Virus record (IMG/VR): IMGVR_UViG_3300005805_000299
Location: 1-31,438 of that record
Source of the DNA: a virus
Lineage: Duplodnaviria; Caudoviricetes
Strand: one strand, 5' to 3'
DNA: 31,438 nucleotides
This document shows, piece by piece, positions 19,356 through 31,438 of this stretch (positions are counted from its first letter, which is position 1; the number at the start of each line of letters is the position of its first letter). Position numbers and translations under genes: made by a program. Under the pieces are notes generated by a model. The model had not been told where the DNA came from. It made no database searches and was given only the letters and a program-made list of their open reading frames with translations.

Positions 19356-20684
19356 ATGGCCGACATAAAAATAATTACACCGACTGTAAAGCGCGTTCCT
19401 GCTCGTGCTAGAGGTCCTTTATCTTCTGAAGAGTATAACGACTTTCAGGATCAAGTCTATTTTGATATTACAAATATATCTGAATCGGTAAATACCTTAT
19501 ATACAAGTAATGCTAGATCAAATAGATCATTTGAGTCTGAAAATATAAATATAAAAAGAAGACTGGATGCCTTAGAAAATGCGCTCCATTACAAGGAATT
19601 TGTAAATGGCAAGACGCAAACTAATGTTGACCGGTATATTGATTTTCACGATGCCAGCAATGTTCTTTATCTTGATACGTTAGCTAATACCAAAAGGGCA
19701 GAGCTTAAATCTCAGTTTGGAGAAATATATCTTCCAGCTAATGGCGTAGACAATAAGTTTTTTAATTTTAGTTTACGTACTAATCAGATAGTAGCTCCTC
19801 CTGATTTTTCTGTTAATGTTACAGCTATTTTTGATAAAGCTGATGGCAATGGGATTAAGAACTATGAATATGGTGGCATTGTAGATCCTGGAATGCCAGA
19901 AAATGCTTTTAATGGTATCAATGAAAGCTATTGGCAAAGAGCTATAACATTCCCATTAGAGTCTACTGTTGAACAAGTTGAAATTGAAATAACAGCAATT
20001 GTTCCTGCTGGAATATCATCACAAGCAAATTTACTAGAACTTGTTCCTTTTCCAGAAGGTACAGTTGATGTTACTAGCATAGGAACGTCTCCTAACTTAT
20101 CTTCATCATTCACGGCTTTAGATAATTTTGCTGAAACTAATGATGTTGTAGCTACTAGGTACCATTTTAGTCCAAGAGAAGTAGAGCAAATTCGCATTAG
20201 ATTGCGTTGTAGACATTGGCGAGAAATCAATGGCAAAAAAGTGTTTCTTTATGGACTACAAGAAGTTGGTTTAAAGTTAGTTGACTATAACAAGGTAACA
20301 AGTAGTGATGTTGCTTTTGGTGACAGCATTACAGCAATAGTTAAAATACCTGCCCCAGAAGGCCATGTATTCAATAAACTGTTTAGAGTTGATCCAAAGC
20401 CAAATTTTTATCTTGAAGATGCTTCTAATAGGCATGTTCGCTTAAGATTGTCCTCTACGCCAGATTATCTTAATGTCAAATGGGATTCAGCTCAAAATGT
20501 GTTACCACAGCAGGGAATATCTACTGGGGTGTCACTTGGCAATGTTAGTATGCTTTATGCCATATACACACTTAAATTTGTTTCTAGTAGCGGCGGTTAT
20601 CAATCGCCATTCCCAGTAGGCACTACTCCAACTGTAAAAGGATTAGGACTTTTATTCTCTACAACACCTATTAATGGGTTATGA
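19356..20684 (+). CDS. Putative baseplate/tail protein, paralogue 4 (shortest)
   Basis: 442 aa. Motifs LSSEEYN..DITNI, coiled coil, FGEIYLP, NAFNGINESYW, LLELVPF, FLYGLQEV, TPTVKGL. GAGG RBS. Confidence 0.65.
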   Translation: MADIKIITPTVKRVPARARGPLSSEEYNDFQDQVYFDITNISESVNTLYTSNARSNRSFESENINIKRRLDALENALHYKEFVNGKTQTNVDRYIDFHDASNVLYLDTLANTKRAELKSQFGEIYLPANGVDNKFFNFSLRTNQIVAPPDFSVNVTAIFDKADGNGIKNYEYGGIVDPGMPENAFNGINESYWQRAITFPLESTVEQVEIEITAIVPAGISSQANLLELVPFPEGTVDVTSIGTSPNLSSSFTALDNFAETNDVVATRYHFSPREVEQIRIRLRCRHWREINGKKVFLYGLQEVGLKLVDYNKVTSSDVAFGDSITAIVKIPAPEGHVFNKLFRVDPKPNFYLEDASNRHVRLRLSSTPDYLNVKWDSAQNVLPQQGISTGVSLGNVSMLYAIYTLKFVSSSGGYQSPFPVGTTPTVKGLGLLFSTTPINGL

Positions 20685-21124
20685 CCGATTTATCAGGACG
20701 CGTACTAGATCTTGAAAAACAGATTCTAGCTTTGCCAACCTATGGGGATTGGCAAGTATTACAGGTTGAGTCAAGTTCAAGATTTAACGTTGTTGAAGGG
20801 AATGTTGCGGACTTGTATGTTAAGTTTAATGAACTTAACAATAAAATTACAAATCTTCAATTATATGGCAATACTGGCTTTACTGGTAATCATTGGCATG
20901 TAGGCAGTGAAGTTCCTTCAGGTAGTATTGATGGTGTCAATAAAGTGTTTGTTTTGGCACAGACCCCATATCCTACTACTTCCCTTGCATTATACAAAAA
21001 TGGACTATTGCAAAGGATTGGTGCCGGAAATGATTATACCTTATCTGGTAAAACTGTTACCTTTGAGACAGATTGCGAACCTGTCGTAGGTAGCAATATT
21101 TTAGCATATTATCAAATCTCGTAA
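20681..21124 (+). CDS. Short fibre/adaptor protein: coiled coil plus beta-sandwich module
   Basis: 147 aa. N-terminus shared with 22989-23744. C-terminal EVP.G.IDG.N..F.LA...LYKNG..Q....NDY module shared with 21147-21731. Confidence 0.7.
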   Translation: MTDLSGRVLDLEKQILALPTYGDWQVLQVESSSRFNVVEGNVADLYVKFNELNNKITNLQLYGNTGFTGNHWHVGSEVPSGSIDGVNKVFVLAQTPYPTTSLALYKNGLLQRIGAGNDYTLSGKTVTFETDCEPVVGSNILAYYQIS

Positions 21125-21146
21125 CCAAGACGACAGGAGTGGTTAA

Positions 21147-21731
21147 ATGGCTCAAACAAGAATAGTATCTCAAGATATCAAAGATGGCACAATAGTTAAC
21201 GTTGACATTAATGCTAATGCTGCAATTAGTGCATCAAAAATAGCTAGCGGTACCGTTGACGATACAGAGTTTGGTTTTCTTAATAATGTTGCTTCACAAG
21301 TAGTTGGTATTAGTGATTCTAATACACTTACCAATAAATTCATTACAGGTACTACCAACACAGTAGCTGCGCATTATATTAAAAATGCTGATGGCACCCA
21401 AATTTCTGTTACAGGTCTGCCAGCAAATGGTTACATACTTACTGCTAGCAGTTCAACACAGGCAAGCTGGGCGCCGGCCACTACTGCATTAGCAACTGGT
21501 AACTTTGTTTTTAATGAAGTCCCTGCTGGTGACATAGATGGCTTGAATGCTGCTTTCACTTTAGCAAATTCTGCCTCTCCTACAAGCAGCATTCAGCTTT
21601 ATAAAAACGGTATTCGCCAAAAACCAGGTAGTGGCAACGATTATGTAATTACTGATGCAACGACTGTAACATTTGAAGCTGGCAATATACCTCAAACTAA
21701 TGATAACCTTTTAGTAGATTATATTAAGTGA
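21147..21731 (+). CDS. Short tail-fibre-like protein
   Basis: 194 aa. AGGAG RBS. IKDGTIVNVDINANAAISASKI fibre-type repeat, TLTNK motif, same C-terminal module as 20681-21124. Confidence 0.7.
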   Translation: MAQTRIVSQDIKDGTIVNVDINANAAISASKIASGTVDDTEFGFLNNVASQVVGISDSNTLTNKFITGTTNTVAAHYIKNADGTQISVTGLPANGYILTASSSTQASWAPATTALATGNFVFNEVPAGDIDGLNAAFTLANSASPTSSIQLYKNGIRQKPGSGNDYVITDATTVTFEAGNIPQTNDNLLVDYIK

Positions 21732-21750
21732 TTATATAGGAGTTTATTGA

Positions 21751-22764
21751 TTGGGTCAGACACGGATTAATTCACAAGATCTTGGTGACAGTCAGGTTAC
21801 GTTGACTGACTTAGGAGCGCTTTCTACAACGGGAGCACTCATAAGTTACTCTAATGGAGCACATGTAGCCTTCCCAAGCGGCCAATCTGGCCGGGTACTT
21901 GTGTCTGATCCAAGCAATACAACTGGTCTTAATTGGTCTAGTACTCCAGCTTTAACTAGAATAAATGATCTTAGCGGTAATGCTATTTTAGATTTTGCTC
22001 CAACATTAAATGCTACAGAATATCTTAGAATTGGAAATACTACAAGTGGAGCAACTACATCTATATCTTTAGCTGTAGCAGGTACTGCTACAGATATAAA
22101 TATTAGGTTTGTACCAAAAGGTGCTGGCGATCTTCGTGTTGGAAGTGCTACAGTAGCTACTACTACTAATGCTATTACGTTAACAAATAAAACATTAACT
22201 ACTCCTAGTATAGCAAGTTTTGTTTCTGGTAATCATAATCATGAAGATTCTGCTGGTGGTGGCCAATTAGGAGTAGCTGCAATAAATGCAGGTGGAACTC
22301 CAAATAGTACAACCTTTTTGCGTGGAGATGGCCAATGGGCTACTCCATTAAAAGGAGTTTTAAGTATATGCTTTAAATCGGAAAATATTGCAGCATGGAC
22401 TAATATGCCTGCAGCGTTAACGTTTTTTGCAGGTAATCTTAGTTATATTGCTAAGGTAAATCTTGAGGGGTATTCGTCTGGCAGGCTTCTTGTAAATAGA
22501 GCTACTGTGGCAGGAGCAACTGACTCATCACTAATGGTTAGGTATAATAGAAACTATTCGACTACAGCAAGCACCTATAGCCCTTTAGGGCAAACTACTG
22601 ATATTATTGTTAATGTTCAAGCTGCATCAGCTTATGACGACTCAAATTGGCAAAGATTATCGTCAGACCCTAATACTGGAGATATTTATATTGGTTTATT
22701 TGGTATTTCTGGAGATGGTGCTTTAGATCCACAGTTTGGAAATATATATGCTCAATTTATTTAA
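21751..22764 (+). CDS. Tail fibre protein
   Basis: 337 aa. TTG start supported by AGGAG and by an N-terminus matching the upstream gene (M.QTRI.SQD). Fibre motifs TLTNKTLTTP and TFLRGDGQW. Directly followed by a fibre chaperone. Confidence 0.75.
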   Translation: MGQTRINSQDLGDSQVTLTDLGALSTTGALISYSNGAHVAFPSGQSGRVLVSDPSNTTGLNWSSTPALTRINDLSGNAILDFAPTLNATEYLRIGNTTSGATTSISLAVAGTATDINIRFVPKGAGDLRVGSATVATTTNAITLTNKTLTTPSIASFVSGNHNHEDSAGGGQLGVAAINAGGTPNSTTFLRGDGQWATPLKGVLSICFKSENIAAWTNMPAALTFFAGNLSYIAKVNLEGYSSGRLLVNRATVAGATDSSLMVRYNRNYSTTASTYSPLGQTTDIIVNVQAASAYDDSNWQRLSSDPNTGDIYIGLFGISGDGALDPQFGNIYAQFI

Positions 22765-22773
22765 GGAATAAAA

Positions 22774-22986
22774 ATGACTTATTCTCAGGAAGATATATCT
22801 ACACAATGGTATATGATTAGAGTTCAGCGTGATTATCGCTTATCTTTATCCGATTGGATAGGTTTATCTGATTGTCAGTTAAATGCAGATAAAAAAAATG
22901 AATGGATTATTTATCGTCAAGCATTGCGAGATATAACATCACAAGAAGATCCGTTTAACATTATTTGGCCTAATAAGCCAACTTAA
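22774..22986 (+). CDS. Tail fibre assembly chaperone (Phage_tail_APC-like)
   Basis: Classic pattern R..RD..L..SDW....D......W..YRQALRDI........WP.KP. AAGGA RBS. Confidence 0.92.
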   Translation: MTYSQEDISTQWYMIRVQRDYRLSLSDWIGLSDCQLNADKKNEWIIYRQALRDITSQEDPFNIIWPNKPT

Positions 22987-22988
22987 TT

Positions 22989-23744
22989 ATGACATTAAGT
23001 GAATTATCTGGTTTATATTCTGGTTTATCTGGAGATCTTCAAGATCTTGAAGATCGTGTATTAGACATAGAAGGCAAGATAGTTGCATTTCCAACTTCAG
23101 ATGATTTTGATACGTTATCAGCTTTAACTACGTCTAGGTTTAATACGCTTCAATCTAGTATTAACAGTTTAACTTCAAAACTTGCAACTCTTGAAGTTTA
23201 TGTTGTAAACCTTAAGTTATCACATACTTCATTAGAGCGAGCTTTTACTGGTCATACTGGCGTTTCCTTTACTGGAAACTTTGGATACTGGGGCTCTTTC
23301 TGGGACACTGGTACACAAACAAATGCTGGGGCTGACAGTGGCAATATAATGTTAATTAGGTCAACTGATCCAGAAAGCAATGGGATATCTATAGTTGACA
23401 ACAGTAAGATCACTTTCCAAAACTCTGGAGTATATAATATACAATTTTCTGCTCAGTTTGATAAAACAGACGCTGGAGATGATGCAACAGAAATATGGTT
23501 TGCAAAGAATGGCATACCACTGTCAGATAGCAATACTACTATAATGCTTCATGGGAACAATAGTAAGGAAGTAGCTGCCTGGAACTATATGTTGCCTTTA
23601 AACTCTGGTGATTACATACAAATAGTATGGCATAGTAATGATACAGATATGAGACTACTTTACCAAACATCTGGGACTAATCCTACAAGACCTGCTATAC
23701 CTTCTGTTATAGTAACTGCGCATCAAGTAAGATTTGAAGCATAG
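22989..23744 (+). CDS. Fibre protein: N-terminal coiled coil plus C1q/TNF-like trimeric head
   Basis: 251 aa. Heptad region followed by SKITF.NSGVYNIQFSAQF...IWF.KNG...LNSGDYIQI.W. Confidence 0.72.
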   Translation: MTLSELSGLYSGLSGDLQDLEDRVLDIEGKIVAFPTSDDFDTLSALTTSRFNTLQSSINSLTSKLATLEVYVVNLKLSHTSLERAFTGHTGVSFTGNFGYWGSFWDTGTQTNAGADSGNIMLIRSTDPESNGISIVDNSKITFQNSGVYNIQFSAQFDKTDAGDDATEIWFAKNGIPLSDSNTTIMLHGNNSKEVAAWNYMLPLNSGDYIQIVWHSNDTDMRLLYQTSGTNPTRPAIPSVIVTAHQVRFEA

Positions 23745-23746
23745 AT

Positions 23747-25966
23747 ATGGTTGTTTTGACTAGAACTTTTGTTATTACAAAAGGTGGTGGAGGCATTGAT
23801 GATGTCTCCATTTTTTTAGAGCGTGAACTTGGTAGAGATGCCTCTTTAGTAAGGTCTATAAGCGCTGCTAGTGTTAATAATATTTCTACATATTTAACTG
23901 TAGAGTATAATGATCGTCCAGACAGCCCAATAGAAATAACAAGTCCTATAAATGGTCTTGTTGTTTCTACTGTAACGCCACCATTACAGTATCTTGCTCA
24001 ATATAGTTATCCTATACAGGAAGCTTCTTTTACTAGTGGTAATGTAAGGTTTGCCAAGAATGGCATTACTACAGGAGCGCTTGTTCAAGTTGAAACTGGA
24101 ACAAATAGCCAGATAGTAGCAGTTAATTTAAGTGGATATTTAACTGGGGCTGGTTCCGGCCAGTCTGGATCTTATACTGTTTATTTTGATAGAGATATAT
24201 TAGATATAGATAATTCTTATCAAAAGAACAGCTCTTTATATGGCTTTAACATAACTAAAGAAGCAGCCCCATATATTGGCCTAGAAGAGTTTTACACAAA
24301 AGAAATTAAACGTGGAAGTATGCGTATGAAATACGCTATACTTGACACATCTGTTTTAGCATCAGTAAAGATCAAGACCATATTATCTAGCTTGCTTGCA
24401 GGAGGCGATCTATTAGCACAGGCAACTTGCCAGAAGGATAATCAAACAGAGGTCTTTGCTATAGTTCTTGACAAGCCAGAGCCTGTACCAGACTATGTAT
24501 ATCCTCGCGTAGGCACAATGAGTCAACAGCAGGTTGGGGTTGAAAAGGTTACTATAACTTATAGGCACCCGATAAGAACTGCTCAAATTGCTGATAATAA
24601 TTTATATAGTTTATTTTACGATTGGCAAGACAGAATAAATATACAAGATATTTATATTACGCCAATTGATGATAGAACTTTAGAGATTGATCTTCAGCAA
24701 TTAATGGCAGATGAGATGATATCATCTTATGATTTAAATTTAATCTGCTTACCTGGACTACATTCTTCAAATGAGGTTGGCGGTCTTGCTTCTACAAGAC
24801 CATATTTGTTGCCATATAAGCGGTTTATATCAGAGGTTGCGGTAGGAACAGGTATATCAGGTGTTACTGGTCCTCAAGGTCCTCAAGGTCCTGAAGGGCC
24901 TCAAGGCCCTGAAGGTCCACAGGGCCCTGCAGGTCCTCAAGGGCCTGCTGGAGGAGGTGGCACAGGAGTTTCAGGGGTCCCTCCATATATTGATCAAAGT
25001 ATACCTGCATGGAGCGGTGCTGATGGTTCATATATAAATGGCACTGCTACAAAATTGACTACAGCTGGAGCTATGACATTAGGCTCTACCCTTACTGTAT
25101 CCGGTAGTACAATCTTAGGGTCTACTATGACAGTATCTGGTACAGCTGGTATAACTGGTGCTACTACAATGGGTAGCACTTTAACAGTTGCAGGGACTAT
25201 TCTAACTTTAGGATCTGCTGGGACAGCAGGAGTCTATAAAATAGGTTCTGATGAAATTTTAAGAGTTTCTACTTCGGGAACTACTTTATTAAAATGCAAA
25301 AATTCTATAAACTTCCAGTCTGGTAGTACAAATCTGCTACATATGACTGGGACAAATGGATCTTTGTATCCAAGTGCTGGCAATTTGCCGTCATTAGGGA
25401 TTCCTAGTAATCCTTTTGGCGCGTTATATTCAAATGAAATAATCCACTCTGGTTTAAATCAGCCTTTAATTACATACAGTGATGCGTCTAATCCAACAGT
25501 ATCTGCCTTTGGCAATATAGTATATAGAACAGATAATTCAATTGAAGATTTGTTTTGCTATGATGCAAGCAGATCGAACTTTTTAAGCGCTGGCACATTT
25601 ACATTGACGGCTGGAAGTACAGGCGCCAATGATACAGAAGAATTCCTAAATTTTGGAAACGGATCTATAGCTTTTCAACAGGGCTTTGGTTATGCTTTAC
25701 CGTTTAGTGGAATTATTGTTGCTGCATTTGCTTCTGCAGAAGCTGCAGTTAATACAGATGTAGAATATAATTTATATGATTCTGACGGTGTTTCTGTAGC
25801 TGGCAATCCGATAGTACTTATCAACAATGGTGCCCAAGTTGGGCATTCGACAGAACTTAATATGATTTTGAGCGGTCTTCATCAGTATTCTATAAAGGTT
25901 GATGCTGATGGCGGTCAGATACTTAACAATAACATTACTTTATTTATTAAAAGGATTGCAAATTAA
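23747..25966 (+). CDS. Collagen-repeat tail fibre/appendage protein
   Basis: 739 aa. Probable Ig-like N-terminal domains, Gly-X-Y run, T.GST.TV.G repeats, C-terminal beta head. Confidence 0.75.
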   Translation: MVVLTRTFVITKGGGGIDDVSIFLERELGRDASLVRSISAASVNNISTYLTVEYNDRPDSPIEITSPINGLVVSTVTPPLQYLAQYSYPIQEASFTSGNVRFAKNGITTGALVQVETGTNSQIVAVNLSGYLTGAGSGQSGSYTVYFDRDILDIDNSYQKNSSLYGFNITKEAAPYIGLEEFYTKEIKRGSMRMKYAILDTSVLASVKIKTILSSLLAGGDLLAQATCQKDNQTEVFAIVLDKPEPVPDYVYPRVGTMSQQQVGVEKVTITYRHPIRTAQIADNNLYSLFYDWQDRINIQDIYITPIDDRTLEIDLQQLMADEMISSYDLNLICLPGLHSSNEVGGLASTRPYLLPYKRFISEVAVGTGISGVTGPQGPQGPEGPQGPEGPQGPAGPQGPAGGGGTGVSGVPPYIDQSIPAWSGADGSYINGTATKLTTAGAMTLGSTLTVSGSTILGSTMTVSGTAGITGATTMGSTLTVAGTILTLGSAGTAGVYKIGSDEILRVSTSGTTLLKCKNSINFQSGSTNLLHMTGTNGSLYPSAGNLPSLGIPSNPFGALYSNEIIHSGLNQPLITYSDASNPTVSAFGNIVYRTDNSIEDLFCYDASRSNFLSAGTFTLTAGSTGANDTEEFLNFGNGSIAFQQGFGYALPFSGIIVAAFASAEAAVNTDVEYNLYDSDGVSVAGNPIVLINNGAQVGHSTELNMILSGLHQYSIKVDADGGQILNNNITLFIKRIAN
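24851..24949 (+). repeat. Collagen-like Gly-X-Y coding repeat (11 triplets, 9 of them G-P-Q/E/A)
   Basis: 9-nt GGN CCN NNN periodicity at 24869-24949, preceded by GIS GVT. Confidence 0.95.
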
Positions 25967-26742
25967 TGGCTAAACCAAGGCCTACAGACGAAGAGCTGTA
26001 TAATATGCCATACCCAGATTTTGCGGTATGGTTTTTAGAATACAATAAAGTAATAATCAATAGATATATACAGCGTAGGCTTATACCTAACAGGTATGAG
26101 CCTTCTGACATTAAAGCATACATGGCAGAGCGTATAATAGATATATTAGAGAAGCGTTCTGCTAAGGGAAAGCCAATAGCAAACCCAAGAACCTACTTTG
26201 GAAGGCTTATAGACTTCTGGTGTATTGAATACCAGAGGATGCATGGCTACATATTTGGTATGCCTAAAAGGCCTCGTAATGCGTTAGCAGAGGAAGAGAT
26301 TTCAAAGTATGGATTTGTTTATTTTGAAACCGATGAGGCTTCAAAAGAAAACAACTATAATCAGAATCCTGAGCTGTCATACGTAGATGCTAACATCACT
26401 GCTAATCATGAGCACTTTGGCTTAATGGGCTATCAAACAAAGGGCGATGATCCTGGCGAAATTACAGAAGCCTGGGATTCAATGATGAAAATGGTCTTGC
26501 CAGAAGACCGAGACATTCTACATTGTCTATTTAGAATGGGAATGTCAATTCCAGAAGCAGGTCGCTATCTTGGTATAGCAGTATGCACTGCTTATGCAAG
26601 AAGAGATAGAGCCTTTATGACAATATCAGGCTATCTAATGTCTGGCGTTGACCTGAACCAGGAGACTTGGAAGATTTTAGAAGACACAAAAGATATAAAA
26701 TCTTCGTCTTCTGATATAAGCAGTCTATTTGAAGATATGTAG
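25966..26742 (+). CDS. Sigma-70 family (ECF-like) RNA polymerase sigma factor-like protein
   Basis: Region 2-like DIKAYMAERII...NPRTYFGRLIDFWCIEYQR and region 4-like LPEDRDILHCLFRMGMSIPEAGRYLGIAVCTAYARRDRA (HTH). Confidence 0.7.
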   Translation: MAKPRPTDEELYNMPYPDFAVWFLEYNKVIINRYIQRRLIPNRYEPSDIKAYMAERIIDILEKRSAKGKPIANPRTYFGRLIDFWCIEYQRMHGYIFGMPKRPRNALAEEEISKYGFVYFETDEASKENNYNQNPELSYVDANITANHEHFGLMGYQTKGDDPGEITEAWDSMMKMVLPEDRDILHCLFRMGMSIPEAGRYLGIAVCTAYARRDRAFMTISGYLMSGVDLNQETWKILEDTKDIKSSSSDISSLFEDM

Positions 26743-26746
26743 ACTA

Positions 26747-26986
26747 TCAATCATTGATTGAGTCTATTGATATTATCTCTTTATCTAAGAGATAATCTAC
26801 GGTATCCATCACTTCTTCTAGGGCTATATCTAATGCCTTGGCCATATCTTCTTCTGATACGCCAGGGTTATCGTTTATATACTTGAGTATTAGTAACTCT
26901 AGATCCGTAAGTCGCTCAATATGAGCATCGTCGTCATCGCCGTTAAGCTTGTCGTTACCAATATCGTCAAAATTGTTATATTTCAT
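26747..26986 (-). CDS. Very acidic winged helix-turn-helix protein
   Basis: LTDLELLILKYINDNPGVSEEDMAKALDIALEEVMDTVDYLLDKEII follows the MarR-type wHTH pattern. 23 D/E versus 6 K/R in 79 aa. Confidence 0.7.
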   Translation of the reverse strand: MKYNNFDDIGNDKLNGDDDDAHIERLTDLELLILKYINDNPGVSEEDMAKALDIALEEVMDTVDYLLDKEIISIDSIND

Positions 26987-26988
26987 GG

Positions 26989-27669
26989 TTATTTGAATAT
27001 CAGTTCTCTGATATCATCGATCTTTTGTAAAACCATCTGAGACCATTTTTCGAATTTTTGTGCATCTGCTGGTTTATTGATAAATTTATAGCTAAGAATT
27101 GAGTCTTCTTCTCTTACCTTGATCTCATAGTTGTCAACTAAGAGAGCATATACAATTCCGATGTGGACTTCTCCTACTGCAGGACCAGGCTTTGACTTAT
27201 CAGCAGTCTCATCAAATGGCGTATAAAGAATCCCGCAAAGCGTTAATCGGCTATCGACAAACTTAGGGTCCATGTCCAGTTCTTCACAGATCTCTCGCAC
27301 AGCGGCTTGCTGTACAGTATCCCAGCCAATGCCATAAATATTGTTCTTATGACCTAATCCTTTTGATCTATCTTCTGGGTTAATATGGCCACCTATGCCA
27401 ATAGAAAATCTATCTATTAAGCGCTTTTCTGATCCTCTTCTTTGATAAGAAAAGACTTTCTTATCTGGTGAAAAAATTAGAATGTATGGTATTATTTGTA
27501 GCGTAGTGCTATCTACTTCAGCCATCCATCTATCAACAAAAGCTGCTTTGCACATTACCTCGTCTATCCAAGCCTCCATAGTAGGATCTACAAAATGGAA
27601 ATAATTTCCATTGCTAAAGTGTATAGAGCTTTTATTTTGGATTACTAATACTTGTTCTTCTTTTTTCAT
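26989..27669 (-). CDS. NUDIX-family phosphoesterase (COG4112/YmaB-like)
   Basis: AE.D....QIIPY, Y.R...E.RL....SIGIGGHIN, Nudix box AVREICEEL, VG.VH.G, E.WS. Confidence 0.88.
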   Translation of the reverse strand: MKKEEQVLVIQNKSSIHFSNGNYFHFVDPTMEAWIDEVMCKAAFVDRWMAEVDSTTLQIIPYILIFSPDKKVFSYQRRGSEKRLIDRFSIGIGGHINPEDRSKGLGHKNNIYGIGWDTVQQAAVREICEELDMDPKFVDSRLTLCGILYTPFDETADKSKPGPAVGEVHIGIVYALLVDNYEIKVREEDSILSYKFINKPADAQKFEKWSQMVLQKIDDIRELIFK

Positions 27670-27741
27670 GTCTTATTATCGCTTTTAGAATGTATACTTT
27701 GGAAATATTTTTAGCGTTTGTAGGCCGGTTTCTTTTAAGGT

Positions 27742-28200
27742 TCAAAATTTTATTATAGATGGATAGTCTGTACAGATACCTAAAATATTAGGATTTTGCT
27801 TTACGGCTAGCTGCCAGTCAGGTCTACAATTAACTGTTATACCGCCTATTACGTAAGTTCCTGGATAACACCAAAGGATTCCTTTGCTAGTTAAAGTAAC
27901 CTTATCATTCTCATGCCAAAAATAGTTAAAATTAGCAAATGCACTGTTTCTATTTTTTAAAAATAATAAAGCTTCTATATTTTTACAATGGATCCAAAGA
28001 TGGTTTTGATAATCTGATAAAAATCTATAGGATATTTTATACTGTGGTATATCATGTCCTAAATATAGTTTATCTTTTAGTACCCAAAGATCTATCTCAA
28101 CATCAAATCCTTTTTTTATTGCTAATTTTATTTGGTTAGGAGTATTTTCTTTTTTAGAATCGGGCCCAGTTAGATTTCCTCTATGAGCAATAACAATCAT
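27742..28200 (-). CDS. Short PLC-like/glycerophosphodiester phosphodiesterase-fold protein
   Basis: IAHRGN..GP...EN, GFDVEID, LGHD, WIHCKN, GICTDY. Confidence 0.8.
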   Translation of the reverse strand: MIVIAHRGNLTGPDSKKENTPNQIKLAIKKGFDVEIDLWVLKDKLYLGHDIPQYKISYRFLSDYQNHLWIHCKNIEALLFLKNRNSAFANFNYFWHENDKVTLTSKGILWCYPGTYVIGGITVNCRPDWQLAVKQNPNILGICTDYPSIIKF

Positions 28201-28208
28201 GCTTAAAT

Positions 28209-28913
28209 TTATGACTCTCTTAATGTATATTTAACTGGGAACCTAATGACTGAAATATCATTAATTTCAATATGCTTCCTAAATACCGATTCTGGGTGAA
28301 GTCCAATATTTTTATTAGCATATTCTACTAATTTTGTAAACAAAAGGCAAACTTTTCCCATAGCATCTCTAGAGCCCATACTCATTTGGTCGTTGTCCCC
28401 GCCTCGAAAATCCCTACCTATTGGTATGTATATAGTGTTTGGCTTAACATCTATAACCTGAAAACTGTCAAATAGTAAATCAAATCTCATTCTTATGATG
28501 ACATCATACTTGAAATTGTTTATATCTTCATAATGCACAACATTTTGAAAACATCTCCATATTTTATAATACATGTAAAAAACATTTTCAAGTTTTGTTT
28601 CATGTGCGTAACTTCCATCGTAACCAGTCGACCAGTTTCTTTTGTTTGTAACATTATATTTAATGTTATTAAAAACTGGGGATGTATTAAAATCTTCAAA
28701 TATTGCTATTTTTGGTTTATATAGACTTATAATCTCGTCAGGAGAAGCATCATTTGCAAAAACTCTTTCATTAGAACCTATAATTTTGCTTTCTGGTGTC
28801 CAAGTATCTATAAAAACATCTGCATTATATGGTTCGATTATTTTAGCACGTATTGAGTCTGCGCATTCTTTTGCGTTTCTAATTTGTCCCGTAATCAGTA
28901 TGGCAGTTTTCAT
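28209..28913 (-). CDS. Putative glycosyltransferase-like protein
   Basis: Pattern A....GQ.R...DVF..TW...M.Y....YD.IIR.R.D...D...G....M...PE, typical of uncharacterised proteins in polysaccharide loci and large viruses. The transferase activity is inferred. Confidence 0.55.
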   Translation of the reverse strand: MKTAILITGQIRNAKECADSIRAKIIEPYNADVFIDTWTPESKIIGSNERVFANDASPDEIISLYKPKIAIFEDFNTSPVFNNIKYNVTNKRNWSTGYDGSYAHETKLENVFYMYYKIWRCFQNVVHYEDINNFKYDVIIRMRFDLLFDSFQVIDVKPNTIYIPIGRDFRGGDNDQMSMGSRDAMGKVCLLFTKLVEYANKNIGLHPESVFRKHIEINDISVIRFPVKYTLRES

Positions 28914-28919
28914 AATAAA

Positions 28920-29531
28920 CTATTTGCTCCAGGCAAATCCAATACCCCAATCATTGGGGCAAGAATTTACTTCAACATTCCATTTTTGAGTATCAATATT
29001 TCTGATGAATAAAAATGGCCCGGGGTGTTCAGCTGTATCATGAAATCCAACAATACCATCTTTAGATAGCCATTTAGTATATTCCCATTCAGTTAATACG
29101 TGATTAACGCTATGGAACCCATCAATAAAAATAAAGTCAAATTCTCTGATCCCTAATGCATTGATTTTATCCATATTCTCTTCAATTTTTCTACTGTCGT
29201 TCTTTATAGTGAAGACATTTTGGGATGGATTATCTAAAAAATTTTTGTTCTCGATGTCAATTCCAATATATTTTGTTTCTGGTAGTTTATTGTTAATAAA
29301 TACAAAACTCGAACTATTTTCTTTATTTCTTGCAACGCCAATCTCTAAGATTGCACGGCAACGGTCTTTTATAGATAGGAACTTTTTGCGCAATGCGTTT
29401 CTATTGCAATCAGTAAACTCTTCATGTGGCCAGCTGGAATGTGGCGTCTCTCTTTTAATATAACCATTGTCAGCATCATCTCTATGATCATTAAATCTGA
29501 TATCTTTTAATAAATCCTGTTTCCACTTCAT
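28920..29531 (-). CDS. Class I SAM-dependent methyltransferase (Methyltransf_24-like)
   Basis: ILEIGV, IGIDI, FDFIFIDG.HS, L...GIVGFHDT. Confidence 0.88.
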   Translation of the reverse strand: MKWKQDLLKDIRFNDHRDDADNGYIKRETPHSSWPHEEFTDCNRNALRKKFLSIKDRCRAILEIGVARNKENSSSFVFINNKLPETKYIGIDIENKNFLDNPSQNVFTIKNDSRKIEENMDKINALGIREFDFIFIDGFHSVNHVLTEWEYTKWLSKDGIVGFHDTAEHPGPFLFIRNIDTQKWNVEVNSCPNDWGIGFAWSK

Positions 29532-29584
29532 GTTAATTTTTTCTTTTTTTAGATTTAAGTGCCCATTTTGTAACTATTTGTTAT

Positions 29585-30784
29585 CTAATTAGATCCCCAC
29601 TTATCTATAGCAGCAAAAAATTCTTCTTTGGGGGTTTTATCTATTGCTTGGCGCATTGCTAACGCGCCTGCTAATGTTCCACCAGGGTGGCCATGAATAG
29701 CTCCACCGCAGTTGGCAAGAAAATCTATGCCAAATTTGTCTACCGTTGGGTTTACAATGCCAGGATGCATTCCACAGCTTAATGCTGGGAGCACATTACG
29801 TTTATGCAGTATATCCATTATGTTGCGAAGCTCTTCGACGTCGTTGCTAAGATAGCCGCCCCACATGCCTGCATGAATAGTATCAACGCCACATAATCCT
29901 GCTAAGTTACAAAGAACACTCCAGTCAATACTAAATGGGTTGCGCTTGTCCGTTAAGATCTTATCACCACTTTTTTGATAGTGGATAAACAAAGGCAAAT
30001 CTAATTTGCGAATCGAATTGTAAACACCTAACCCACTCCAAAAATTGATATGAACACCATTGCCACCATTTGCTGCTACAAATTTAGCACGATCCAAGAC
30101 AGCATGATGATCCCCATTAATACAAAAACAATAGATTACTCCGCGACCGCAGTTATTAATAATATTGCTAATTAGTTCAACCCTATCTTCTAAACGGCAG
30201 AAGGATGGATTAGAAAGAATCTCATCTTCTTTGATAAAATCAACACCGCCATCTAATAGCTCCTTAACCATTTCTCCAAGGGTTATTGGAGAAATACCAG
30301 TTTTAGGCTTTACAATCGCACCAGAAAGAGGCTTATTGTAACGGTTGACAAACTTACGGATGCCACTAATACCATTCTTAGGTGCCAAGAACTCTGCCTC
30401 TACATCAGCAGGGAACTCTATTTTCTTAAGACGGCAAGCTTTAAATATATCAATATCTAATTGTCCGCCCATTACTTGGCATAGTAAATGTGAGATTCCA
30501 TCGCCTTTCCAATCAGTATTAGATTTAGGGAATCCAATTTTGACTGTTCCTTGATAAACCCCGGTCAAATTCTCTTCTATGTCGTAGATAACGCAAGATG
30601 CGAGTTCAAAAAGGTCATCGTTTTCCCAGCGATTGCGAACTTTTGGATTTCCCACGCTTTGGCCAATAGCAAGACTCCAGGCAGCATCTTTCAGGTCACC
30701 AATATGATGATGCGATTCAATGTAATACGTTGCTACAATACAACGGTCTTTTTCGTCTTTTGTGAGTTCTCTAAAGAATTTCAT
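29585..30784 (-). CDS. RuBisCO large-subunit superfamily protein, RuBisCO-like (form IV-type, non-carboxylating)
   Basis: IVKPKTG, GGVDFIKEDE, D.IHAG, PALSCG.HP, GGAIHGHPGG..AGA.A.RQA, terminal AIDKWG. Several carboxylase residues are substituted. Confidence 0.93.
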   Translation of the reverse strand: MKFFRELTKDEKDRCIVATYYIESHHHIGDLKDAAWSLAIGQSVGNPKVRNRWENDDLFELASCVIYDIEENLTGVYQGTVKIGFPKSNTDWKGDGISHLLCQVMGGQLDIDIFKACRLKKIEFPADVEAEFLAPKNGISGIRKFVNRYNKPLSGAIVKPKTGISPITLGEMVKELLDGGVDFIKEDEILSNPSFCRLEDRVELISNIINNCGRGVIYCFCINGDHHAVLDRAKFVAANGGNGVHINFWSGLGVYNSIRKLDLPLFIHYQKSGDKILTDKRNPFSIDWSVLCNLAGLCGVDTIHAGMWGGYLSNDVEELRNIMDILHKRNVLPALSCGMHPGIVNPTVDKFGIDFLANCGGAIHGHPGGTLAGALAMRQAIDKTPKEEFFAAIDKWGSN

Positions 30785-31107
30785 TGCTTAATCTCAAATT
30801 TATCCTGCGGTAATGAAGGAACCTTTGCACATACAATTATGCAGTTTTCAAGAAAAACGGGATCAGCAATCTCACCTTTCTCAAAGACAAATACATCTCC
30901 ACTATTTAATTCTTTCCCTTGAACCGTCATTTTTCCACTGACTAATACATTATATTCTATACTATCTTTATGATAATGTGAAGGCCATTTTTCCCCTTTG
31001 TAATGGGTTAAAACTCCAACTTCAAAATCTTTGGTTCGTAAAACTGTTGGCTCAAAATCCCCAATAAACCAACCTCTTACATAATCAGTAATCTTTGTTA
31101 TATTCAT
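30781..31107 (-). CDS. Cupin-fold protein
   Basis: GWFIGDFEP, H.H....E...V.SG, L..GD.F...GE. ATGA overlaps on both sides. Confidence 0.85.
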   Translation of the reverse strand: MNITKITDYVRGWFIGDFEPTVLRTKDFEVGVLTHYKGEKWPSHYHKDSIEYNVLVSGKMTVQGKELNSGDVFVFEKGEIADPVFLENCIIVCAKVPSLPQDKFEIKQ

Positions 31108-31436
31108 ATTTTGTCTAAATATTTTTCTAAGTCTTCAGGTGTTCCTACTGGGTTATGTTGCCATTCTGGGATATGATGTATACCAACTTTCAATTGACTT
31201 TTTATCATATAATTATAGGATGGTCCGACGTAAAATTCACCATTTGGTGCTCTATCATTACATTGTATCATAGACTGAGAGCTTTGTACAAAGTATTTTC
31301 CCTTTCTCCAGTAGTGAATTCCGTTTAGAGAAATATTACTAATAACCTCTTTCTCTCTTATTTCTTTGACAAATCCATATCTATCAATTTTAGCGTAACT
31401 ATTTTTTGGGGTTGTAGCAGTATAAGTTACAACTAA
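31104..31436 (-). CDS. Sugar-phosphate nucleotidyltransferase-fold protein (GT2_BcE/BcbE-like), C-terminal 110 aa, 5'-truncated (not in the ORF track)
   Basis: Hand translation: LVVTY...SYAKID..G.VKEIREKEVISN..LNGIHYWRKG.YF.....MI..NDR..NGEFYVGPSYN...GTPEDLEKYLDKI. The TGA overlaps the cupin ATG. Confidence 0.85.
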   Translation of the reverse strand, partial: LVVTYTATTPKNSYAKIDRYGFVKEIREKEVISNISLNGIHYWRKGKYFVQSSQSMIQCNDRAPNGEFYVGPSYNYMIKSQLKVGIHHIPEWQHNPVGTPEDLEKYLDKI

Positions 31437-31438
31437 AC

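Follow-up and report, generated by a model that had tools for sequence, protein, structure and literature searches.

We analysed a 31.4-kb phage record, IMG/VR record IMGVR_UViG_3300005805_000299 (positions 1 to 31,438, referred to here as the window), whose plus strand carries virion and tail genes assigned to PHROG head and tail families. For one of the structural proteins, matches at 22–23% were found to structural proteins from the group of Bacillus phage 0305phi8-36. Six minus-strand genes at the right end of the window encode a nucleotidyltransferase (NT), a cupin, a RuBisCO-like protein (RLP), a methyltransferase, a glycosyltransferase (GT)-like protein and a protein with a phosphodiesterase (PDE) fold:

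31104-31436, minus strand: NT, C-terminal 110 amino acids (relatives about 237 amino acids), 5′ end cut by the window
30781-31107, minus strand: small cupin, 108 amino acids (Cupin_2, E 1e-4, below the cut-off)
29585-30784, minus strand: intact RLP, 399 amino acids (RuBisCO_large, E 1.8e-40, both Pfam domains)
28920-29531, minus strand: class I S-adenosylmethionine (SAM) methyltransferase (Methyltransf_24, E 1e-5)
28209-28913, minus strand: DUF7796-like protein with a predicted GT-A fold, candidate transferase (Pfam DUF7796, E 4e-8)
27742-28200, minus strand: miniature GDPD-type PDE (alignment and profile match to GDPD)

An initial annotation had proposed that the RLP of this cassette works biosynthetically with the cupin in sugar activation. 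The gene arrangement on which it drew was confirmed: the NT/cupin and cupin/RLP overlaps (31104-31107 and 30781-30784) both read ATGA, and the methyltransferase, GT-like and PDE-fold genes follow on the same strand with gaps of 53, 6 and 8 nt. A Pfam scan of 26 window open reading frames (ORFs) likewise matched no phosphoribulokinase (PRK), RuBisCO small subunit, or AMP- or methionine-salvage family.

The predicted RLP structure, built from an alignment of 29 sequences, had a pLDDT of 93 and matched form III RuBisCOs and RLPs with Foldseek TM values of 0.84–0.90. Pfam recovered both the N-terminal α/β domain and the TIM barrel. Superposition on the form III RuBisCO 2cwx gave a VIA Z of 44.7 (rmsd 2.0 over 381 residues), compared with Z 42.1 for 2qyg and 36.6 for 3qfw, so the RLP structures from Rhodopseudomonas palustris are no better matches than form III. 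The protein falls below every NCBIfam cut-off; its best scores were 193, 152 and 141 bits against cut-offs of 497, 409 and 700, and the MtnW enolase and OiaX models scored 152 versus 409, 117 versus 514 and 141 versus 700, the last being OiaX.

We then examined active-site residues in 137 RLP relatives of less than 95% identity, using RuBisCO numbering mapped through an alignment to form III. K175, K177, K201, D203 and E204 (K159, K161, K185, D187 and E188 in the window protein) were each present in 137/137, S379 and G381 were invariant, and G403/G404 almost so. Essentially all sequences had replaced E60 by G, N123 by G and K334 by Y, and R295 was F, Y or L in 137/137. The E60, T65, N123, H294, R295 and K334 set of RuBisCO forms I–III is not kept in full, and at those positions the window protein carries G41, N46, G107, Y269 and Y311. 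This pattern indicates that the enolising Mg/carbamate core and the first phosphate site have been kept, whereas the second phosphate site has been lost along with the residues for carboxylation; judged by its residues, the RLP is not a carboxylase. The fold and the carbamate-Mg core are common to MtnW, OiaX, form III RuBisCO and the window RLP, which differs from the other three in its loop and P2-site residues and in its gene context. Nine further residues (Q42, N46, R50, D110, H245, N247, Q270, Y311 and C337) are conserved and private to the clade, suggesting that the RLP is under selection for one specific reaction.

To place the cassette in a wider context, we collected relatives of the RLP. 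At E ≤ 1e-20, 2,692 proteins matched; a locus scan gave 267 viral relatives, 41 genome loci and at least 350 metagenome relatives, from which we took the best 80 viral loci, the 41 genome loci and the best 80 metagenome loci. The genome loci came from SAR11, Woesearchaeota and other DPANN archaea, Legionella, Azospirillum and Verrucomicrobia, with some contigs of metagenome-assembled genomes looking viral. The idea of a phage-restricted module was accordingly not borne out, as RLP and NT occur together in SAR11, DPANN archaea, Legionella and Azospirillum as well. Among loci with full 3-kb flanks on both sides (60/80 viral, 24/41 genome and 32/80 metagenome), an NT gene lay within 3 kb of the RLP gene in 60/60 viral, 24/24 genome and 31/32 metagenome cases. 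After dereplication at 95%, the suggested tabulation of RLP neighbourhoods found NT in 83/84 loci, together with a cupin in 61, a PDE or GDPD in 58, a DUF7796/WavE-type GT in 40, the cassette methyltransferase in 20 and a HAD gene in 4. Two proteins (P0121 and P0122) fuse RLP, NT and cupin, and a third fusion protein joins RLP to another neighbour family. Wider RLP neighbourhoods are glycan islands with epimerases, GT families, O-antigen ligase and flippases.

When another 221 ORFs from the 3-kb surroundings of 43 dereplicated RLP loci were scanned with Pfam, leaving out 4 long ORFs, no PRK or methionine-salvage family was matched; MtnA, MtnP and AMP phosphorylase were matched neither there nor in the window, the search not extending to more distant genes of the cellular genomes. 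Single matches were returned to an NT5C-type HAD nucleotidase, a glucokinase, a class II aldolase and a split transketolase. The possibility that the RLP has an ordinary carboxylase or methionine-salvage role, raised beforehand as an objection, is thus disfavoured by the residues and the gene context. Taken together, the non-carboxylase residues, the lack of a methionine-salvage context and the NT linkage and fusion make a biosynthetic role upstream of nucleotide activation likely, and the RLP very likely feeds the NT its substrate. No RLP relative was present in 50,697 INPHARED phage records, which therefore pointed to no isolate host. RLP matches on plasmids, at 28–32% identity, were of other RLP types and were set aside.

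Some loci depart from the window arrangement. In nine viral loci (L015, L019, L026 and six more) the RLP is 82% identical to that of the window and the NT only about 43%; downstream of RLP, these loci carry a kinase of the APH type, a sugar-phosphate cyclase resembling dehydroquinate synthase and a short-chain dehydrogenase/reductase (SDR), possibly a cyclitol branch. In four Legionellaceae loci (L114, L115, L117 and L118, 8700-11900) the RLP-NT pair adjoins a divergent LicD-family gene and lacks PDE and cupin. L068 (7389-11150) has a split transketolase and an SDR immediately upstream of NT-RLP, which may be where the ketose phosphate comes from.

As a control we selected loci from the PDE side, blind to RLP, taking the best 80 of at least 593 relatives. 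These 80 loci contained NT in 75 cases, a β-PGM/YqaB-like HAD in 63 and RLP in 4. Comparison of dereplicated, flank-filtered modules revealed a HAD-superfamily gene in 1/57 RLP+NT+PDE modules versus 37/40 RLP-free NT+PDE modules. In each of the remaining 3/40 a KdsC-type phosphatase was accompanied by a PfkB kinase, and in two of these the NT was fused to RpiB. When the comparison was restricted to the PDE-selected set, HAD was found in 1/4 modules with RLP versus 37/40 without (p 0.006; 40/40 and p 0.0003 when KdsC is counted), p-values that overstate independence because the loci are related and the compared sets were picked by different queries. In L142, L143 and L146, a PMM-type mutase (PF03332) occupies the exact RLP slot in the order NT-cupin-X-PDE. 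Sister clusters thus place a phosphatase or a mutase where the window has its RLP, which suggests that the ketose-1-phosphate needed for an unusual surface sugar likely comes from the RLP.

Pentulose phosphates are suggested by other RLP-free modules. Cyanophage Bellamy encodes an NT-RpiB fusion (L150, 4838-5995) and cyanophage S-SKS1 a fusion of NT to 3,4-dihydroxy-2-butanone-4-phosphate (DHBP) synthase (L154, 5001-6428), an enzyme that acts on ribulose-5-phosphate. An E. coli plasmid (L238, 5203-12405) and two viral loci (L319 and L320) carry tandem NT, GtrA, GT2, GDPD-type PDE, a PRK fusion, HAD and class II aldolase. Each front end, whether HAD, PMM, kinase plus phosphatase, PRK plus HAD or RLP, can be read as a route to a ketose-1-monophosphate.

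In L238, L319 and L320, PRK stands in a setting of glycan modification with no RuBisCO; at its N-terminal end, the L238 PRK fusion is unrelated to the GT-like family. RLP-free modules of NT, HAD, GDPD and WavE are also found on bacterial plasmids. On a Rhizobium plasmid (L153, 58-8487), an RLP-free GDPD-HAD-NT-NT-NT module lies beside genes annotated as FGGY kinase, TIM and RpiB-family isomerase, a neighbourhood resembling erythritol catabolism.

RLP-partnered NTs were scattered over a tree built from 152 NT domains, on which the RLP label required 12 changes, 6 of them forced by strong branches, and some RLP-partnered NTs were 67–70% identical to HAD-fused NTs. This scattering and the close identity suggest that RLP and HAD serve similar NTs. 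The window NT fragment itself had no Pfam match and matched phrog_3980; full-length viral NTs 78–81% identical to it matched NTP_transferase and PDB 4evw (E 6e-12), the nearest solved relative.

The other cassette genes fit the initial annotation less closely. The cupin has a His-His-Glu metal triad (H44 in 123/123, H46 in 118/123 and E51 in 123/123); a structure search by sequence returned only weak matches to quercetin dioxygenase, and an atlas search unnamed viral clusters. It had been cast as the partner of the RLP, but it is present in only 10/41 cellular RLP loci and also in RLP-free modules (8/76), where it stands beside the PMM mutase in L142, L143 and L146. The methyltransferase, presented as a step of the pathway, is accessory (29/80 viral and 1/41 cellular RLP loci). 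Cupin and methyltransferase are therefore not core partners of the RLP.

The GT-like protein has a predicted GT-A fold (model pLDDT 90) with the GT6-type enzyme BoGT6a as best match (Foldseek E 5e-8; VIA Z 12.1 with an rmsd of 3.1 across 180 residues), although the fold alone does not prove the transferase type, because nucleotidyltransferases of the same fold score Z 9–10. In the last gene product, H6, R7, E35, D37 and H49 are invariant in 15 aligned relatives, corresponding to the GDPD His-Arg pair, E-x-D motif and second His, and a profile matched the glycerophosphodiester phosphodiesterase 7e0v (E 2e-4) over the first 53 positions only. Archaeal loci carry a longer GDPD (PF03009) in place of the small PDE. 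The initial annotation had linked the gene to a possible dephosphorylation; its product is a GDPD-type phosphodiesterase rather than a simple phosphatase, and it belongs to the shared NT module whether or not RLP is present. Catalysis by GDPD-fold enzymes proceeds through cyclic phosphates. Of the biosynthetic role first proposed, the connection to sugar activation is upheld by the NT linkage and fusions, whereas the joint action with the cupin, the methylation step and simple dephosphorylation found no support in the form proposed.

RuBisCO-superfamily genes in viruses had been said to be known, with no function assigned in this gene context, and the accessible text of Jaffe et al. (PMC6389311) agrees: it describes about 80 phage "form IV-like" RuBisCO-related sequences, also found in Beckwithbacteria, and leaves their function unclear. 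As described there, the "IV-like" proteins share with the window RLP a phage-borne location, divergence from known RLPs, non-canonical catalytic residues and presence in IMG/VR. The window RLP lies on a phage contig with structural genes, as in that clade, and the IMG dataset number in the identifier of L037, whose RLP is 81% identical, appears in the paper's list. The window RLP clade is very probably the published "IV-like" clade, extended here to SAR11, DPANN archaea, Legionella and Azospirillum. The words "nucleotidyl", "glycosyl", "cupin" and "pyrophosphorylase" are absent from the text of the paper's supplement, in which genomic context is given as a picture (Figure S1) that may include these neighbours. 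Unplaced RuBisCO groups are also mentioned in the accessible part of the GOS survey (PMC1821046).

The closest functional parallel is the DeepYkr RLP of Rhodospirillum rubrum and R. palustris, described in the available text as converting methylthioribulose-1-phosphate to methylthioxylulose-5-phosphate in the methylthioadenosine (MTA)-isoprenoid shunt and as encoded beside a cupin (PMC5893883, PMC6302742). The RLP fold and the cupin neighbour are common to both, and the DeepYkr enzyme, as far as those sources describe it, interconverts 1- and 5-phosphates of a single-phosphate pentulose. Unlike DeepYkr, which serves catabolic sulfur salvage with MtnP and MtnA, the RLP described here has no salvage genes around it, has an NT partner and does not have DeepYkr as its nearest structure.

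For the ketose end of the pathway, the accessible literature reports a requirement for BcbE and BcbG in forming the fructose branch of the Pasteurella multocida type B capsule (PMC13552107), for KfoE in that of the E. coli K4 capsule (PMC8858990) and for HS1.08 in that of Campylobacter jejuni HS1 (PMC7901785). All of these are ketose side-chain genes in capsule loci, and the accessible parts of these reports mention no RLP with them and no donor chemistry. Within the literature searched, mostly outside subscription journals, we found no paper on an RLP in a glycan context or on a defined fructose donor.

From the observed fold, residues, NT linkage and fusion, and the near-exclusion of HAD, mutase and kinase genes, we infer the following chemistry. 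The RLP would catalyse a Mg-enediolate 1,3-carbonyl migration from C2 to C4, turning a host pentulose-5-phosphate (ribulose- or xylulose-5-phosphate) into a pentulose-1-phosphate with no ATP. The NT would make a nucleoside diphosphate (NDP)-1-ketose from the ketose-1-phosphate, and the GDPD-type PDE would free the nucleoside monophosphate through a 1,2-cyclic phosphate, so that the anomeric C2 becomes the activated position. Transfer of the ketose onto a virion or infected-cell glycan would then fall to the GT-A protein, with the cupin, a putative isomerase or epimerase, and the methyltransferase tailoring the sugar in some lineages. The NT substrate is, on balance, probably a ketose-1-phosphate made without a phosphatase; its origin by 1,3-isomerisation of a pentulose-5-phosphate has a little under an even chance. 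The broadest form of the proposal is held tentatively: the RuBisCO clade of phages, SAR11 and DPANN archaea might be an anabolic, ATP-free "phosphomutase by carbonyl walking" or a branched-sugar synthase, feeding an undescribed NDP-1-ketose/1,2-cyclic phosphate route that would also explain capsule fructose and xylulose branches.

Several observations, besides the relatedness of the loci behind the p-values, weigh against this proposal. In the redundant set, 16/227 RLP loci carry a HAD, of which 5 have two NTs and thus two modules; in the other 11, the only NT is fused to HAD and directly adjoins cupin and RLP, indicating that the replacement of HAD by RLP is not strict. The HAD profiles cover just the subfamilies encountered and the loci were sampled by best score, while the upstream part of the operon lies outside the window, where a HAD gene is possible. 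PDE or GDPD is absent within 3 kb in 26/84 dereplicated RLP loci. H294 is F in 17/137 RLPs and H327 is Q in 33/137, and because both vary we name no catalytic base. As the RLP is no closer to the R. palustris RLPs than to form III, the DeepYkr precedent is an analogy, not an orthology. Finally, the link to ketoses leans on the BcbE and KfoE papers, the NT being a presumed homologue of BcbE, BcbG and KfoE.

Other roles for the RLP have to be weighed against supplying the 1-phosphate. Together with the cupin, as in the initial annotation, it could epimerise at C3, or isomerise, a ketose-1-phosphate that is already present (fructose-1-phosphate to psicose-1-phosphate, or ribulose-1-phosphate to xylulose-1-phosphate) and that was made by a host enzyme or a HAD. 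RuBisCO is known to misprotonate at C3 as a side reaction, the enediolate machinery of the RLP is intact, and the 11 loci with HAD-NT, cupin and RLP together, as well as the triple fusion that includes the cupin, are consistent with such an activity. However, it leaves unexplained why HAD is absent from 56/57 RLP+NT+PDE modules and why a mutase occupies the RLP slot, and the cupin is too rare in cellular loci. We regard this role as unlikely, since the gene-replacement pattern favours an RLP that supplies the 1-phosphate over one that epimerises it. Similarly unlikely is that the RLP builds or rearranges the carbon skeleton, either by aldol addition of a dihydroxyacetone phosphate enediolate to give a ketose-1-phosphate, or by rearrangement or transcarboxylation to a branched sugar phosphate of the hamamelose or apiose type for the NT. 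Class II aldolases in RLP-free modules (Bellamy and L238), which such an activity would replace, and the clade-private invariant residues, which suggest new chemistry, speak for it, and RLPs acting on branched apiose-derived acids are described in the available text of PMC6302742. On the other hand, no conserved dehydrogenase or aldehyde source lies beside the RLP, K334 is lost and the OiaX score stays far below its cut-off.

A third possibility dispenses with the glycoside: the RLP product, a ketose or polyol phosphate, would become a CDP-type donor for phosphodiester attachment of the teichoic-acid-like or LicD type, with the PDE acting in editing. The Legionella RLP-NT pairs, which adjoin LicD and lack both PDE and the GT-like gene, would suit this reading, as would weak IspD matches for some NTs and the SDR after RLP in the L015 clade. 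We consider it improbable given the DUF7796/WavE-type GT-A genes in 40/84 loci and, if the NTs are homologues, the loss of the fructose side chain in BcbE/BcbG mutants reported in the accessible part of PMC13552107. Less probable still, and disfavoured, is that the glycan context is incidental and the RLP serves auxiliary metabolism, in the fixation of CO2 or the salvage of AMP or methionine/MTA. RLP plus cupin is indeed the MTA-isoprenoid shunt's gene pair according to the available text of PMC5893883, and the nearest folds are form III RuBisCOs, but E60, N123, R295 and K334 are replaced in essentially all 137 RLPs, MtnA, MtnP, PRK and AMP phosphorylase gave no Pfam match within 3 kb of the 43 dereplicated loci, and the NT linkage and fusion stand against it.

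The RLP clade itself was very probably already known; a biosynthetic role and the near-exclusion of HAD by RLP were not found in the literature searched. Supply of a ketose-1-phosphate to the NT would give a concrete reaction to a published RuBisCO clade that has no assigned function and, if true, would have an RLP take part in making glycans instead of in salvage or catabolic pathways. Many RLP relatives are annotated as "ribulose-bisphosphate carboxylase large chain", and phage RLP genes should not be read as carbon-fixation auxiliary genes. HAD, a PMM mutase, a kinase with a phosphatase, PRK with HAD, and RLP are interchangeable as front ends, which points to the substrate of the shared NT-PDE-transferase module and may bear on the activation of ketose branches in bacterial polysaccharides.

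Finally, we assessed the assembly and surroundings of the cassette. Overlapping contigs of run X1 tile 20000-31438, from the tail genes through the cassette, which speaks against a chimeric join, a concern raised with the initial annotation, although X1 is possibly the source sample and hence not independent. The depth of the X1 contigs is ~20 to the left of 27300 and 6–12 to the right, and runs X2, X4 and X5 cover parts of the structural region and little of the cassette, which may reflect a variable island, a feature that contigs cannot show. An exact-pattern scan of metagenome contigs gave no match to the DNA upstream of the window, and run X1 searched with the NT region of a relative gave only three short weak pieces. 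In one related phage contig with a structural gene (L236, 38% complete), an uninformative case, neither an RLP nor the NUDIX gene was seen. Promoter and terminator counts were at the level of shuffled sequences.

The cassette is a mosaic in its best-relative identities, which are 81% for NT, 87% for cupin and 85% for RLP, and 57% for methyltransferase, 37% for GT and 51% for PDE. Many of the best relatives of NT, cupin and RLP come from loci with the T4-like markers PhoH, ThyX and DUF6433. The RLP gene has a GC content of 40.5% and a GC3 of 33%, compared with 30–34% and 18–29% in neighbouring genes. The mosaic identities and this GC contrast hint at recent transfer between phage lineages.

Next to the cassette, in the region 25966-26986, a plus-strand ORF of 258 amino acids, sigma-factor-like in appearance and with no family match, converges with two minus-strand genes, a 79-amino-acid winged-helix ORF and a NUDIX gene (26989-27669). 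Further to the left (23747-25966) lies a tail-fibre-like protein of 739 amino acids with a collagen-like G-P-Q repeat near 24860-24950, and it is tempting to speculate that these repeats may be a target of glycosylation.

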